Origin: a virus
Taxonomy: Duplodnaviria > Heunggongvirae > Uroviricota > Caudoviricetes
Virus record (IMG/VR): IMGVR_UViG_2563366823_000003
DNA: 43,465 bases
Strand: one strand, 5' to 3'
Positions 2,740 through 43,465 of this stretch are shown piece after piece. The position numbers and the translations under genes are program-made. Within the stretch, counting starts at the first letter, position 1. Every line of letters begins with the position of its first letter. The notes below the pieces were generated by a model that saw only the letters and a program-made list of their open reading frames with translations, had not been told where the DNA came from and searched no databases.

Positions 2740-3836
2740 TATGCGAGCCTCACAATATAGTTAAATGCGATGTTTTTGACGGTGTTTTCCGCGTTACCAG
2801 CAGCGTTAACGGTGATGGTGTGTCCATGTGAACCAATCGCAACAGAGTGCGTATGTGCACCAATAGCGACAGTATGTGTATGCGCCCCAGCACTTGCTGC
2901 AGTACCTGATACTGAGTGGGTATGCGCGCCAGCAGAATTCGTTGCACCTAAGTGAGTTTGAGCAGAGTTCGACGAAGCTACTCTACCGGAGCTAACGTTA
3001 GCATTATCCCCCTGAGATATCGGATGCGTATGTGCACCTGCTGAAGCTGCTGTTCCGCTAACGCTATGGGTATGCGCACCAGTGTTATTCGTAGATTTAG
3101 TTCCATAATCAAACGATGATGTGTTTTTTGTCCCTAAATCTGTATTGGAAGCACTGGCGCTGTGGGTGTGCGATTTAATGCCGTCCTGTTCCTGGCTAAG
3201 AACATCACGTCCACTTGCAGGCTTACCTTTGATTGTCCAGCCACGCATATCAGGGATCACGCCTGACGGATAAGCGGCTGCAAGTTTCGGGTATGCAGAC
3301 TTGTCAAAAGTCTGTCCCTGCATCAGAGCATAACCAGATGGAACTGTATCTGATGGCCACGGGATCGGGGCACCTACAGGAAAGGTCGAATTATTTTCCA
3401 AACCAAGATATTTAAGGACATCAGCAACAGAGCTTTTTGCCAAAATATCTCGCCCAACCTGTGTCAGGTCAGCCAAATTAGCGGTATCTTGATTGGTAAA
3501 ATACGGTAATTTGTTTTCGGATGCTGAAAGATTAGCAAGTGCGGTAAGTATGGCATTAATTCTCTGATAGTTCTTATCTAATGCAGACGACATTTTTGCG
3601 ATAAATCCGGCCTGATCGCCATCGTCCTGTACATCCAGTCCACTTTCATTTGCTGTATATTGTGCCATTGCAGATGCAATAAAGCTGGCCTGCCGAATAA
3701 CCTTATTGACTTGCGCACTGGATGCTTTCCCTGCTGTAAATCCGGATAAAAGCGCAGGTAATGCTTCCCATTCCTCCTGCGACATAACATTGGCATTCCG
3801 ATCAGTTGCAAACGCTTTAAAGTCATTTTTCGCCAT
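2739..3836 (-). CDS. side tail fibre protein with His-rich C-terminal repeats (GAHTHS x5)
   Basis: 365-aa ORF immediately upstream of tfa; repeated [15 protein letters not shown] units; start placed at ATG 3836 overlapping the upstream stop (TGATG). Confidence 0.8.
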
Positions 3837-33983: not shown

Positions 33984-34060
33984 TTGTTTTCACCTTGTAA
34001 CGCTCGCAGCGTTACATTTAACTGATACCGAACAAAACAATCCGGCACGATTAATTTCAA

Positions 34061-34483
34061 TCAATGCACTACGACAGAATCGCCGGGCGACCCACCACCG
34101 CTGAAATGTGCTTTCCGGTAAACGGCCTGGACTGCATCATCATGCGCATCAATTGCCGTACTCAATGCTTCCTGCGCCGCCAGTAATGCACGGCGTTCCA
34201 GGGTATCGAAGATACAGAGTCGGTGACGCAGCTCGCGCGGAAGAATTGCCAGAACCGCAGGGATCAGTTTCTGAATTTTTTCCCTTTGCGCTTTCGTTTC
34301 ACCTTTCAACCAACGGTGATAGATATTCTGCTGATTGTTCCAGTCCTTGCCTGGTACAAGGGGCAATTCGCCGCCCCCCTGGCGCAGATATTCTTCAGTA
34401 ATTGCGTTAGCGACCCACGCCTGCCCTTTTTCGGCTGCCAGGGCCAACAACACTGATTCGATATGCTCATGCCTGATTTTCAT
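34061..34483 (-). CDS. YdaT-like protein (CII-position regulator)
   Basis: 140-aa ORF immediately downstream of the cro-like gene, same size and position as Rac ydaT (recalled). Confidence 0.5.
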   Translation of the reverse strand: MKIRHEHIESVLLALAAEKGQAWVANAITEEYLRQGGGELPLVPGKDWNNQQNIYHRWLKGETKAQREKIQKLIPAVLAILPRELRHRLCIFDTLERRALLAAQEALSTAIDAHDDAVQAVYRKAHFSGGGSPGDSVVVH

Positions 34484-34722
34484 GAATCAACCGCTCCTAT
34501 GCTGTTTTCGCTATGCTTACCGTCTGGGGGGAATACATCGTCAAGTCCACAATGAGCGCCAAGCCGATTAAGGGTAGAAACAATTTTTCTGCACTCCTCT
34601 AGCCCAGGGGTACGAAAATTTGCTTCGTAATTTGCCAGTCGGCTTTGTATCCACCCTAACTGAACAGCGAGTTGTCTTTGAGACAACCCAAGCTGTTTTC
34701 GATATGTTGAAATTTTGTTCAT
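34480..34722 (-). CDS. Cro/YdaS-like HTH regulator
   Basis: 80 aa with HTH LGLSQRQLAVQLGWIQSRLANYE; divergent from the repressor gene. Confidence 0.6.
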   Translation of the reverse strand: MNKISTYRKQLGLSQRQLAVQLGWIQSRLANYEANFRTPGLEECRKIVSTLNRLGAHCGLDDVFPPDGKHSENSIGAVDS

Positions 34723-34818
34723 TGAAAACCTCCGATGACAATTTTAAACACACATTGTGTTATATTGTCAAGCTATTTTGTGTTTTATGTAAATCACGAT
34801 TCGTGATACAAGGATGCA
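34723..34818. promoter_or_regulatory. divergent promoter/operator region between repressor and cro-like gene
   Basis: Palindromes aacacaCATtgtgtt (about 34746-34760) and atcacgaTtcgtgat (34791-34805) in a 96-bp intergenic region. Confidence 0.55.
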
Positions 34819-35238
34819 ATGGAAAAAGAAAACGAAAAAATTGCCGCTAGTAGGCTCAATGACAAAATTGCAATGCGTCTTAAAGAGCGCAGGCAGAAGC
34901 TTGGTTTATCTCAAGGAAAACTTGCTGAAATCTGCGGATGGACGCAATCGCGTATAGGTAACTATGAGGCGGGCAGCAGAAATGTTGGAGTGCATGACGC
35001 TGTCGTATTGGGAAAGGCTCTTGGCATATCTCCTCCTGAGCTCCTCTTTGGAGAACAGGAATCTTCTGAATTGTGGTTAAATGAATCCCAACGAAAACTT
35101 CTTGAGTTGTTTAACCAGCTACCGGGCTCAGAACAACAACGAATGATTGAGCTATTTGAAGTCCGGCTAAAAGAAATCGATGAGTATGTAGAAAAATATT
35201 TGAGAGGCAGGCTTAAAGATAATCCCCCACCGGAGTAA
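34819..35238 (+). CDS. prophage repressor, RacR-like (XRE-family HTH)
   Basis: 139 aa with HTH LGLSQGKLAEICGWTQSRIGNYE; no peptidase domain; divergent from cro-like gene. Confidence 0.7.
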   Translation: MEKENEKIAASRLNDKIAMRLKERRQKLGLSQGKLAEICGWTQSRIGNYEAGSRNVGVHDAVVLGKALGISPPELLFGEQESSELWLNESQRKLLELFNQLPGSEQQRMIELFEVRLKEIDEYVEKYLRGRLKDNPPPE

Positions 35239-35268
35239 TGATCTTGCTATCACAGTAATATGCCAATC

Positions 35269-35293
35269 AGCCCGCTATCAGCGGGCTTTTTTG
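35269..35293 (+). terminator. rho-independent terminator after the repressor gene
   Basis: Stem agcccgc/gcgggct with 5-nt loop followed by TTTTTT. Confidence 0.65.
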
Positions 35294-35543
35294 TACCATC
35301 ATCATATGACACCCACCACAAAACACATTTCGTGTTGACACAAGAAAACGCATTGTGTTTAATAAGCATATCCAAACAACGCCCCACCAGAGAACGGCAG
35401 GACAATACCTCGAGTTATCCAGCCACTGAACAGGGCTAAGTAGCCAGCCTGAGGCATACGAACATGACGGCAGTTGTTGATTGATACAAAGCGCAGTAGA
35501 TAAAACGTTCCGCCACCCGGCGTTAAGGGGAAATGAGGTCAAC

Positions 35544-35699
35544 ATGGATACTATCGATCTTGGCAACAACGAATCTCTGGTATGTGGCGTGTTTCCCAAT
35601 CAGGACGGCACATTCACCGCCATGACATATACCAAAAGCAAAACGTTTAAAACCGAAGCTGGCGCACGTCGTTGGTTGGGAAGACATTCAGGTGAGTAA
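35544..35699 (+). CDS. small hypothetical protein (51 aa)
   Basis: ATG-initiated ORF MDTIDLGNNESLV... downstream of operator-like palindromes. Confidence 0.4.
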   Translation: MDTIDLGNNESLVCGVFPNQDGTFTAMTYTKSKTFKTEAGARRWLGRHSGE

Positions 35700-36171: not shown

Positions 36172-36571
36172 ATTCATTTCCTTACTGGTTGTGTGAGAAC
36201 TCCAGTAAAGATACCACCAAAGCCCGGAGGTGGTGAAATAAAACCGGGCACAACACGAAGGCGCATTTCTGGTATCCATAAAGAGTCGGTCTTGTCTGTT
36301 AAATTTAAATGGTGGGAGTGCGCCTCCGGTTGTAAATAACGACATTGCTTTGTGTAGTCTTTGGCGGCATCAGTTCTACTCCGTGGCTGCCCTGCCGCCC
36401 CTTTTTAAAGTGAATTTTGTGATGCGGTGAATGCGGCTAAGCGCACGCGGAACAGTTAAAAGCATCAGTGTTATGGGTGGATTATCCGGCGTTAATTGTT
36501 AACTGGTTAACGTCACCTGGAGGCACCAGGCACCGCATCGACAAAATTCATTTGTAAAAATGGAGATAATT

Positions 36572-36793
36572 ATGATTGCTCATCACTTCGGAACTGATGA
36601 AATACCACGTCAGTGTGTGACCCCTGGCGATTATGTTCTTCATGAAGGTCGGACATATATCGCCTCGGCAAACAATATTAAAAAGCGAAAACTTTATATT
36701 CGTAGCCTGACTACAAAAACATGCATTTCTGACTGCATGATTAGAGTCTTCCTCGGTCGTGATGGTTTACCTGTAAAGGCGGAGTCATGGTAA
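36572..36793 (+). CDS. KilR-like small protein (73 aa)
   Basis: ATG 36572 with GGAGA upstream; size and position match Rac kilR (identity not verified). Confidence 0.45.
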
Positions 36794-37412: not shown

Positions 37413-40067
37413 ATGAGCACCGATAAACAAGTTTACCCACTGTATTACGAAGCAAAAAATGACAAAGTAAGAAAACGTCTCGGTATTAAAGGCGGTTTCT
37501 ACTGGGCTGAAGCGAAAAAATTATCCATTGCCATCTCCCGTGGTGCTGTTGCGATTGACGATGCTGGCTACGATGAAGATGACTTTAAAAAACCTGTTCG
37601 CGTCAATTTGCCCGTTGTTGATGACCTTCCACCAGAAGGCGTATTTGATACGGAATTCTGCAACCGTTACGAAAAAGGCGGGGAAGATGGCATCACAATG
37701 GTATTTGTCGCGCCCTCACCCTCTGCGCAGGACAAACCAGCCAGCACTGACAATACCAATGTTAATGGCGAAGACATGACGGAGATTGAGGAAAATATGC
37801 TACTCCCGATTTCCGGTCAGGAGCTGCCCATTCGCTGGCTTGCTCAACACGGCAGCGAAAAACCGGTAACGCACGTTTCACGCGACGAACTCCAGGCATT
37901 ACACATTGCACGGGCTGAAGAACTACCAGCTGTTACTGCCCTGGCTGTTTCCCACAAAACCAGCCTGCTCGACCCGCTGGAAATTCGCGATCTCCATAAA
38001 CTGGTGCGTGATACTGACAAAGTTTTCCCTAATCCAGGCAATTCAAGCCTGGGGCTGATGACTGCTTTTTTCGAAGCATACCTGGACGCAGACTACACCG
38101 ATCGCGGTCTGCTGACAAAAGAGTGGATGAAAGGAAATCGTGTTTCACGCATCACGCGCACGGCTTCCGGTGCTAATGCTGGCGGCGGGAACCTCACCGA
38201 TCGCGGCGAAGGTTTCGTTCACGATCTGACGTCACTGGCGCGCGACGTAGCCACTGGCGTACTGGCTCGTTCAATGGACGTGGACATTTATAACCTTCAT
38301 CCGGCACACGCTAAACGTGTCGAGGAAATTATCGCTGAAAATAAACCGCCCTTTTCTGTTTTCCACGACAAATTCATCACCATGCCTGGCGGGCTGGATT
38401 ATTCCCGCGCCATCGTGGTTGCTTCCGTAAAAGAAGCACCAATTGGGATCGAGGTCATCCCCGCACACGTCACTGAATATCTGAACAAAGTACTGACTGA
38501 AACCGATCATGCCAACCCTGATCCGGAAATTGTGGATATTGCCTGCGGTCGCTCCTCTGCCCCAATGCCGCAGCGTGTAACAGAAGAAGAAAAACAGGAT
38601 GATGAAGAAAAACCGCAACCATCTTGCGCAATGGCAGATGAACAGGCAACGGCTGAAACAGTGGAACCGGATGCAACTGAACATCATCAGGACACGCAGC
38701 CGCTGGATGCTCAGTCACAGGTAAATTCTGTTGATACGAAATATCAGAAACTGCGGGCAGAACTCCATGAAGCCCGGAAAAACATTCCGCCCCAAAATCC
38801 TGTCGATGCAGACAAATTACTGGCTGCCTCTCGCGGAGAATTTGTTGAAGGGATTAGCGACCCGAATGATCCGAAATGGGTTAAGGGGATCCAGACCCGC
38901 GATTCTGTGTACCAGCATCAGCCAGAAACGGAACAGAACGACCTAAAATCGGAACAAAACGGCCAAAATGCGCGACAAAATGAACCAGAAGCGCAACAGG
39001 AACTGGAAAAAGTCTGCCATGCCTGCGGTCAGTCTGATGGAGATAACTGCCCTGATTGTGGCGCGGTGATGGGCGACATCACGTATCAGGAAACCTTTAA
39101 TGAAGAAAATCTGGATGAATCTCAGGAAAAAGATCCGGAGGAAATGGAAGGCCCTGAACATCCGCACAATGAGAATGCTGGCAGCGATCCGCATCGCGAT
39201 TGCAGTGATGAAACTGGCGAAGTCGCAGATCCCGTAATCGCAGGAGACATAGAGCCTGGTATTTATTACGGAATTTCGAATGAGAATTACCACGCGGGTC
39301 CCGGTGTCAGTAAGTCTCAGCTCGACGACATTGCTGATACTCCGGCGCTGTATTTGTGGCGTAAAAATGCCCCAGTGGACACCACAAAGACAAAAACGCT
39401 CGATTTAGGAACCGCTTTCCACTGCCGTGTACTTGAACCGGAAGAATTCAGTAACCGCTTTATCGTGGCACCTGAATTTAACCGCCGTACAACCGCCGGA
39501 AAAGAAGAAGAGAAAGCGTTTCTGATGGAATGCGCAAGCACAGGAAAAACGGTTATCACTGCCGAAGAAGGCCGGAAAATTGAACTCATGTATCAGAGCG
39601 TTATGGCTTTGCCGCTGGGTCAATGGCTTGTTGAAAGCGCCGGACACGCTGAATCATCAATTTACTGGGAAGATCCTGAAACAGGAATTTTGTGTCGGTG
39701 CCGTCCGGACAAAATTATCCCTGAATTTCACTGGATCATGGACGTGAAAACCACAGCGGATATTCAACGATTCAAAACCGCTTATTACGACTACCGCTAT
39801 CACGTTCAGGATGCATTCTACAGTGATGGTTATGAAGCACAGTTTGGAGTGCAGCCAACTTTCGTTTTTCTGGTTGCCAGCACAACTATTGAATGCGGAC
39901 GTTATCCGGTTGAAATTTTCATGATGGGCGAAGAAGCAAAACTGGCAGGCCAGCAGGAATATCACCGCAATCTGAGGACCCTGGCTGACTGCCTGAATAC
40001 CGATGAATGGCCAGCTATTAAAACGTTATCACTGCCCCGCTGGGCTAAGGAGTATGCAAATGACTAA
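37413..40067 (+). CDS. recE: exonuclease VIII (RecE)
   Basis: 884 aa; C-terminal nuclease domain [22 protein letters not shown]...DVKTTADIQ...YHVQDAFY; immediately upstream of recT with ATGA overlap. Confidence 0.85.
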
Positions 40068-43123: not shown

Positions 43124-43465
43124 TTAACAGAGTTTTTCAGCTCGCTCTATAAACGGTGCCAGACTCATTTTTTCGCCGGGATTGTTAGGATCATCAATCT
43201 GAATCACCGAAATGGGTTGGGCTTTAGTCTTCCCACTGGCAACTTCCTTTTGTGCGATATCGTTTAAAGGATACTGCACGAGGGTACTTGGGTTAATGAC
43301 ATACAAAGCATTACCCGGTCGGCAAGTCAGCATCACCTCTTCGCGATTAAACGCCCATTTGTCTTTACCCACTTCAAAACGGCTGACGGTAATCACCTGC
43401 GGTGCCGCCAGCGCAGCTGCAGAACTGGTGAGTAACAGAAACGCCAGAATACTTTTTCTCATCAT
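43124..43465 (-). CDS. yebY: periplasmic protein YebY (DUF2511)
   Basis: 113 aa with signal peptide [22 protein letters not shown]; near-identical to recalled K-12 YebY; start codon at the window end. Confidence 0.85.

Follow-up and report, generated by a model that had tools for sequence, protein, structure and literature searches.

Predicted operators of a lambda-style immunity switch in a Rac-like lambdoid prophage of Escherichia coli

Dyads flanking the repressor gene

The virus record IMGVR_UViG_2563366823_000003 (Caudoviricetes; 43,465 nucleotides, all of which were analyzed and are referred to below as the window) is a Rac-like lambdoid prophage of Escherichia coli. We analyzed two clusters of short palindromes that flank its repressor gene. 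This gene is divergent from a gene for a Cro-like protein; both proteins are of the helix-turn-helix (HTH) type, and the gap between the genes is 96 bp (Cro-like start at 34722, repressor start at 34819). A sequence-only reading of this region had reported four palindromes, two in the gap and two downstream of the repressor terminator. All four were found in the sequence: AACACACATTGTGTT and ATCACGATTCGTGAT are both located inside the 96-bp gap, and the other two are both located 3' of a hairpin (35269–35287) and its T-run. The fourth palindrome, AAACGCATTGTGTTT, is indeed present at 35346–35360, but its register had to be changed, as the family described below fits better one base to the left. 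We consider it highly probable that these dyads are operators for the prophage repressor, which would silence two early promoters in a lambda-style immunity switch. The genes and sites are as follows; ranks refer to a position weight matrix (PWM) described below.

34480–34722, minus strand: Cro-like gene, 80 amino acids (aa), from the list of open reading frames; Pfam HTH_3, E = 6.7e-10
34819–35238, plus strand: repressor gene, 139 aa; Pfam HTH_3, E = 4.7e-13
34747–34761: ORa, AACACACATTGTGTT, perfect dyad with exact AACAC-N5-GTGTT, in the spacer of the predicted PR-like promoter; PWM rank 2
34770–34784: ORb, AAGCTATTTTGTGTT, probable weak operator with only the right half-site good, abutting the predicted PR-like -35; PWM score 6.1, rank 15
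34793–34807: ORc, ATCACGATTCGTGAT, perfect dyad of the ATCAC...GTGAT variant, beside the repressor gene; PWM rank 3
35322–35336: OLa, AACACATTTCGTGTT, perfect dyad with exact AACAC-N5-GTGTT; PWM rank 1
35345–35359: OLb, AAAACGCATTGTGTT, one mismatch, in the spacer of the predicted PL-like promoter; PWM rank 4

We found that one family of 15-bp dyads, A(A/T)CAC-N5-GTG(T/A)T, covers all four palindromes. A division into two types, with a 3-bp and a 1-bp center, was rejected: a single 5-N5-5 register fits every site and is the sole register conserved in relatives. A repeat finder grouped three of the four palindromes as a single 16-nt family, whose starts are separated by 575 and 23 bp, and tied ATCACGATTCGTG to the same family as the other three. 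ORb, a degenerate fifth site that was absent from the sequence-only reading, has a spacing of exactly 23 bp to ORa as well as to ORc. Site starts are thus spaced by 23 bp throughout, with three sites in the 96-bp gap and two past the terminator. A hairpin or RNA role for the dyads was also considered and set aside; their stems are 5 bp long and A/T-rich.

Predicted promoters and terminator

The dyads overlap predicted divergent promoters, which combine the consensus -35 hexamer TTGACA with conserved -10-like elements.

34741–34771, minus strand: predicted PR-like promoter of the cro-like operon; -35 TTGACA at 34771 to 34766
35335–35363, plus strand: predicted PL-like promoter; TTGACA at 35335–35340, 17-bp spacer, -10-like TTTAAT at 35358–35363
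34804–34819, plus strand: predicted PRM-like extended -10, TG-a-TACAAG at 34804–34812, overlapping the right half of ORc
35269–35293, plus strand: intrinsic terminator of the repressor gene, from a terminator scan; 8-bp stem with 6 GC pairs, then TTTTTTG

For the PR-like promoter, two -10 candidates were noted, TTTAAA at a distance of 17 bp (34748 to 34743) and TAAAAT at 19 bp (34746 to 34741). The GTCAA of its -35 (TTGAC on the minus strand) is invariant in 11 relatives, and the TTGAC and TTTAA of the PL-like promoter are kept in 10. The PL-like promoter points in the same direction as the repressor gene, toward the early-left genes (DUF1391/ydfA-like, DicF and recE), and the last two bases of OLa are the first two of its -35. 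According to the repeat finder, the PR-like and PL-like promoter-operator units are near mirror images, and the -35 elements overlap sites alike at both. The hairpin and T-run of the terminator are found at the same place in relatives.

The element TG-a-TACAAG ends six bases short of the repressor ATG. All relatives examined preserve the arrangement TGnTAnAAn, then 6–7 nt, then ATG, although the intervening bases drift. Because of this arrangement, the PRM-like transcript would probably start at the A of the ATG (34819) and the repressor mRNA would be leaderless, as reported for lambda cI and for paaR2 of CP-933P (PMC8630535).

Distinguishing the sites from chance matches

The dyads might be mere chance features of AT-rich promoter DNA with no binding function, and a count of the bare pattern left some room for this view. 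Allowing one mismatch at most, the whole window had 4 matches against 1.44 expected, and 4 of 100 shuffled sequences also reached 4, which is weakly significant and only modestly above expectation. Because this count was weak evidence, a PWM was built from 34 sites, all of them from other genomes, and used to scan the window at 43,451 positions. ORa, ORc, OLa and OLb occupied ranks 1–4 (scores of 22.0, 19.4, 15.1 and 14.9 in order of rank), whereas 30 dinucleotide shuffles averaged 0.1 sites at a threshold set to the lowest of the four scores. Together with half-sites that are invariant across genera and within E. coli, and with covariation between the OR-like and OL-like clusters (both described below), this ranking by a matrix from independent genomes makes a chance origin extremely unlikely.

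Conservation in related loci

Homologues of the repressor form a family across Enterobacterales. We compared 20 loci from species-representative genomes, 15 places found via exact-protein look-ups and two phage genomes. Every locus whose repressor has the recognition helix GW(T/A)QSR(I/V)GNYE carries the same dyad at the same five places. These helix-matched relatives were found in Salmonella (84% identity) and, at 57–66% identity, in Citrobacter, Dryocola, Serratia, Klebsiella, a second E. coli type and phage Chris1. In all of them, three sites are located upstream of the repressor start in steps of 23 or 24 bp, and two are located past the terminator with a spacing of 23 bp, the first of which is fused to an invariant TTGAC. 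In anchored alignments, the 10 half-site columns were 100% conserved at ORa (10 distinct sequences) and at OLa (7 sequences), whereas the five central N5 columns were 40–90% conserved and the spacers between sites drifted freely. The other places were more variable in form: relatives have A(A/T)CAC-N5-GTG(G/A)T at the ORc place and AACAC-N5-(G/A)(A/G)GTT at the OLb place, and those from Dryocola, Serratia and Klebsiella have AACAC-N5-G(T/G)(T/G)TT at the ORb place.

A similar picture was seen among close variants. Four E. coli versions of the module, which are 95–99% identical, showed no variation at any of 50 half-site positions, even with the ORb half-sites included; by comparison, 22 of 116 other non-coding positions varied (p = 1.9e-4), as did 9 of 25 N5 positions (p = 1.6e-5; one-sided Fisher tests against the half-sites).

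Covariation of operator and repressor

The sequence-only reading had proposed that these operators define immunity specificity. We found five classes of recognition helix and half-site, and the OR-like and OL-like clusters of one locus always change together. For example, the helix GW(T/A)QSR(I/V)GNYE goes with the half-site AACAC, GWSGA(S/P)RVANYE with TTCAC-N5-GTGAA (Kosakonia, K. pneumoniae), GWATASRVGNYE with GACAC-N5-GTGTC (Enterobacter, Pectobacterium), and GWSGSSRIANYE with (C/T)TCAC-N5-GTGAG (a Salmonella prophage). In the fifth class, an unrelated HTH on the same C-terminal domain is accompanied by TTTAC...GTAAA dyads in both clusters. This covariation of the repressor helix with the half-site, seen in both clusters, matches what the proposal predicts and thus supports it. 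The classes would provide a useful natural series of repressor and operator-code variants (AA, TT, GA and CT) for studying the reading of the outer half-site bases by an HTH.

The same observation bears on whether the sites could be targets of a host global regulator, such as CRP, rather than of a prophage protein. The dyads do contain CACA/TGTG strings, and the CRP consensus is TGTGA-N6-TCACA; a CRP-type site was nevertheless rejected, as its half-site order is opposite to, and its spacing different from, that of (A/T)CAC-N5-GTG(T/A). Promoters of cryptic prophages are sometimes under host control, for example the Rac promoter PydaST, on which OxyR acts (PMC11879457). However, a site for a host factor would not change along with the recognition helix of the prophage repressor, and we regard this explanation as very improbable.

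A further alternative is that the dyads are bound mainly or only by another prophage protein, either the Cro-like (YdaS-type) or the YdaT (CII-like) protein, with the 139-aa protein acting elsewhere. The Cro-like protein and the repressor have the same recognition helix, so that sequence cannot separate them, and in Rac YdaT also binds within the racR-ydaS region (PMC11879457). However, the outer half-site bases covary with the helix of the repressor and not with that of the Cro-like protein. The YdaT recognition sequence, TTGATT-N6-AATCAA, is also different, and is found here at the ydaT start codon (34473–34490) and not at the dyads. Besides, in both Qin and CP-933P the repressor and the Cro-like protein bind shared operators (PMC10448788; PMC8630535). 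We therefore consider this alternative very improbable.

The repressor and Cro-like proteins

The 139-aa repressor consists of an N-terminal HTH_XRE domain and a conserved C-terminal helical domain; its AlphaFold2 model is all-helical (pLDDT 86). HTH families were its only Pfam matches, and no S24 peptidase or Ala-Gly cleavage module was found in it by Pfam. Its similarity to DicA of prophage Qin (29% identity, E = 2e-15) spans the whole protein and takes in the C-terminal LF-x-LP-x-EQ domain, which is seen throughout the repressor family. Foldseek and PDB sequence searches returned solved relatives of the HTH half only (C.AhdI, P22 c2, the 434 and lambda repressors, and Stl), with no solved structure matching the C-terminal domain; SinR is at best an architectural analogue. 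By its domain build, the protein is thus assigned to the short prophage repressors of the DicA/Gifsy type.

The HTH of the Cro-like protein is 45% identical to that of the repressor over 42 aa and has the same recognition helix, QSR[IL][GA]NYEA. A 30-nt inverted repeat (34665–34694 and 34898–34927, 83% complementary) lies inside both coding regions and is a footprint of these homologous HTH segments, not a regulatory element.

A stricter rule, in which Gln reads the AA outer bases, was considered and not retained: it holds for the repressors only and is weakened by the Cro-like proteins, which probably read mainly the shared CAC-N5-GTG core. Two Salmonella prophages (L038 and L024, ~2400–2500) have identical Cro-like proteins with different operators and repressors (TTCAC/CTCAC versus AACAC), with the mosaic junction falling directly at the ribosome-binding site of cro. 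In this pair, two immunity types are apparently served by a single Cro type.

The proposed switch

In the proposed switch, the repressor would bind the 15-bp dyads as a dimer, with one HTH per half-site. ORa occupies the spacer of the cro-side promoter and ORb adjoins its -35 on the upstream side, so that bound repressor would block RNA polymerase and keep the operon of the cro-like, YdaT and replication genes silent. At the left cluster, OLa over the -35 and OLb filling the spacer would silence the early-left operon of DUF1391, DicF and recE. The overlap of ORc with the extended -10 may lead to negative autoregulation at high repressor concentration. The spacing of 23 bp (~2.2 helical turns, as in lambda) would permit cooperative binding of adjacent dimers. 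The Cro-like protein is expected to compete for the repressor's sites because the two share an HTH with the same recognition helix. Since the repressor has no peptidase domain, RecA-stimulated cleavage is not the expected route of its release, which would instead be expected to occur via an antirepressor or stochastic switching, as with DicA and the repressors of Gifsy. DicA is relieved by the antirepressor Rem (PMC10448788), and Gifsy repressors are relieved by LexA-controlled antirepressors (PMC3121763).

Several observations weigh against this sequence-based model. First, GW-x-Q(S/P)R(L/I)(A/S)NYE is retained by the Cro-like proteins of every class, including those of loci with TTCAC and CTCAC half-sites, and in one Salmonella locus an AACAC-type Cro is paired with CTCAC/TTCAC operators. 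Second, ORb matches the family poorly and may not be bound in isolation. Third, the -10 elements TTTAAA (PR-like) and TTTAAT (PL-like) are non-canonical, with T at the second position. A simple sigma-70 consensus scan did not call the proposed promoters and pointed to other, weak candidates instead; it missed the PR-like and PL-like promoters because their -10 elements lack A at position 2. Fourth, the search for an antirepressor was aimed only at Rem of Qin, of which no counterpart was detected in the window (best E = 0.28), and the window contains no exact LexA box. Finally, a good match far from the switch is not accounted for: an isolated operator-like site, AACACGATTCCTGTT, is located at 1080–1094 in AT-rich non-coding DNA, ~33 kb away (PWM score 14.6, rank 5). 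It may be a chance match (~0.1 such sites are expected per window) or a distant target of the repressor.

Prophage setting

The ~2 kb around the switch match E. coli COL60J at 99% identity, and the neighboring genes in that strain are annotated as ydaV, ydaU, ydaT, two "helix-turn-helix" genes, DUF1391, kilR, ydaE, recE and recT. The module was found in 153 of 5,426 complete E. coli genomes (~3%), where its annotation is only the generic "helix-turn-helix protein". The present analysis thus provides base-level operator and promoter coordinates for a generically annotated immunity module, including its relatives across Enterobacterales. Further features of the neighborhood are as follows.

34061–34483, minus strand: YdaT-like (CII-equivalent) gene, Pfam YdaT_toxin; next after the Cro-like gene and followed by replication genes
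35544–35699, plus strand: DUF1391 (ydfA/ydaF-like) gene, Pfam E = 4e-29; first gene of the PL-like operon
36349–36400, plus strand: DicF small RNA, Rfam RF00039, 63.5 bits (gathering score 48)
37413–40067, plus strand: recE, downstream of the DUF1391 gene, from the annotation of the 99% identical genome

A YdaT-box-like sequence, CTGATTTTCATGAATCAA, spans the ydaT start codon at 34473–34490 with one mismatch to TTGATT-N6-AATCAA; in Rac and CP-933P a YdaT box is likewise located at the ydaT start codon (PMC11879457). A weaker copy with two mismatches was found at the ydaT stop (34047–34064). An STnc100-like element at 36390–36579 on the plus strand, with 46.2 bits against a gathering score of 47, adjoins DicF. 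The window therefore represents a Rac-like prophage with a Qin-type dicF module, which would be controlled by the repressor operators via the PL-like promoter.

The promoter under predicted OL control would drive DicF and recE/recT-type genes, and the sites would thus define the silencing of a potentially toxic early-left operon. This raises the question of purpose. By the same mechanism, but in a defective prophage, the left cluster could serve mainly to silence a domesticated toxic module (DicF small RNA and cell-division inhibitors) rather than to provide superinfection immunity. DicF and a ydfA-like gene are both in the operon, a 99% identical copy in another strain has a truncated gene just downstream, and DicA plays exactly such a silencing role at dicBp of Qin (PMC10448788). 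However, the same module is found in a phage genome, that of Citrobacter phage Chris1, and the DNA-binding domain and operators are found in phage mEp213; besides, silencing and immunity are not mutually exclusive. We regard this emphasis on silencing as possible but rather unlikely, and retain the immunity switch as the preferred reading.

Comparison with lambda

The sequence-only reading had also held that the arrangement mirrors the OR/OL geometry of lambda, and it does so in every respect that can be tested by sequence. The repressor and cro genes are divergent, with three dyads 23–24 bp apart between them; a terminator follows the repressor gene; a second dyad cluster of the same orientation is located at the early-left promoter; and the repressor mRNA is probably leaderless. 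The similarity extends to the sites themselves. Lambda OR2 (T-AACAC-CGTGC-GTGTT-G) matches AACAC-N5-GTGTT exactly, and none of the six lambda operators differs from AWCAC-N5-GTGWT at more than two positions (spacing 23/24/24/20 bp). The repressor HTH aligns without gaps to that of lambda cI, and the Gln-Ser that opens the recognition helix (helix 3) is kept. There are also clear differences. The repressor has 139 aa, lacks the RecA-cleavage domain and is related to cI in the HTH only (E about 2e-3). The N5 is A/T-rich here and G/C-rich in lambda; the central bases of the 17-bp lambda operators (TATCACCGCCGGTGATA) differ, and the PWM gives scores of at most 3.6 to five of the six. There are two OL sites here and three in lambda, and the clusters are separated by ~575 bp here and by 2.4 kb in lambda. 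Also, a YdaT-family protein has the CII role here, and there is no N gene. The mechanism is therefore not new; it would be a further example of the lambda paradigm in an uncharacterized immunity type.

Comparison with Rac, Qin, CP-933P and mEp213

The window resembles Rac in its surroundings (ydaT, ydaU, ydaV, kilR, recE and recT), in its divergent layout and in the YdaT box at the ydaT start codon. Four RacR operators have been described in Rac, where the gap between racR and ydaS is also bound by YdaT (PMC11879457). However, the repressor showed no similarity to RacR (BLASTP E = 2.0), and the best PWM score in the Rac gap was -3.2, compared with 15–22 for the window sites; homology to RacR and Rac-like operators were both rejected. 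A comparison with Rac operators, which the sequence-only reading had suggested as a way to predict heteroimmunity, was therefore uninformative. Because RacR is dissimilar and the Rac gap has no site of the family, heteroimmunity to the Rac prophage is expected. The relevant relatives for comparison are DicA of Qin, PaaR2 of CP-933P and cI of mEp213.

DicA is the closest characterized homologue of the repressor, and the gene order of Qin is the same: a cro-like gene, the repressor, a promoter (dicBp, to which the PL-like promoter is analogous), ydfA (DUF1391) and DicF. Operators have been reported in both the dicA-dicC and dicA-dicBp gaps (PMC10448788). However, the Qin operators are dyads of the TTAGY...RCTAA type with PWM scores of at most 8.8, and the Cro-like protein showed no homology to DicC. 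In CP-933P, PaaR2 and YdaS footprints cover PR and PRM, and PL has the same -35/-10 and operators (PMC8630535); the repressor and YdaS genes are divergent across ~97 bp, the repressor gene is leaderless, and YdaT is the CII equivalent (PMC8630535; PMC9986795). This likeness is to the published architecture, and no PaaR2-named chain was among the PDB matches of the repressor. The operator consensus of CP-933P also differs (18-bp repeats, GTTTAGTAA), and paaR2 is the first gene of a toxin-antitoxin operon, unlike the repressor gene here, which is immediately followed by a terminator. The operator sequence is thus unlike that of all three prophages, Rac, Qin and CP-933P, and in the literature searched we found no paper that describes the operators of this module.

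A further comparison is with the inducible lambdoid phage mEp213. The N-terminal 70 aa of its cI are 58% identical to the repressor, with the identical recognition helix QSRIGNYE, and its OR and OL have three dyads each of the same family with a spacing of 22–24 bp (for example, AACACATATTGTGAT and ATCACATTTCGTGTT). These stretches, located at 2431–2492 and 3226–3286 of the mEp213 locus (L040), have the form AACAC/ATCAC-N5-GTGTT/GTGAT, and no published description of them was found in the literature searched. If the mEp213 cI mRNA is also leaderless, the annotated start of this gene is probably placed two codons too far upstream. The C-terminal half of mEp213 cI is of the cleavable LexA/S24 type, and the cII and N genes of this phage are of the lambda type. 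Two different C-terminal domains are thus found in combination with one DNA-binding head and operator family. Tentatively, domain swapping may have uncoupled immunity specificity from induction, with a QSRIGNYE head placed both on an SOS-cleavable cI and on a non-cleavable DicA-type repressor. If the two heads cross-recognize each other's operators, the prophage would give SOS-proof immunity against phages of the mEp213 group, or those phages would repress the prophage in trans. We predict heteroimmunity of the prophage to Rac and Qin, and possibly cross-immunity with mEp213-type phages. Possible cross-recognition of mEp213-type or even lambda OR2-type operators is the point of greatest interest.

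Other observations

A strongly conserved element of ~65 nt, shared by most relatives, was found 45–60 nt downstream of the PL-like -10 in related loci of every immunity type (L002:3030–3105, L034:3018–3093 and about 20 others), with the consensus GUCAUCaAGGCAGGAnGCCCACGAAGUAGCUGCCGGCGGCAUACGAAaCACCGGAUGAGAUGAC and 42 invariant columns. The window has only a divergent version of it, at 35396–35462. The element matched no Rfam family, and a covariance model built from it had no match in the window, in lambda, Qin or Rac, or in HK022 and HK639, the latter of which has an annotated putL-like RNA. Identity with the put antiterminators could not be established, as the model had no match in put regions. 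RNAalifold predicted an outer 6-bp stem with compensatory changes at four pairs and an inner stem with one such pair. The element is possibly an unrecognized leader RNA of the early-left operon that acts in antitermination or processing. It is present, unannotated, in 54 phage records, including ST64B, SPN3UB, mEp237, mEp460, SEN34 and T5-like Providencia phages.

Besides, one of the sequences with a related locus, NZ_JBNNOB010000016.1 (42,471 bp; L007 and L020), is labeled Sphingomonas sp. Its repressor gene is split across both ends, and the operators are of the Serratia type. These features suggest a lambdoid phage of the enterobacterial type that was assembled as a circle, or a contaminant, in a Sphingomonas assembly.

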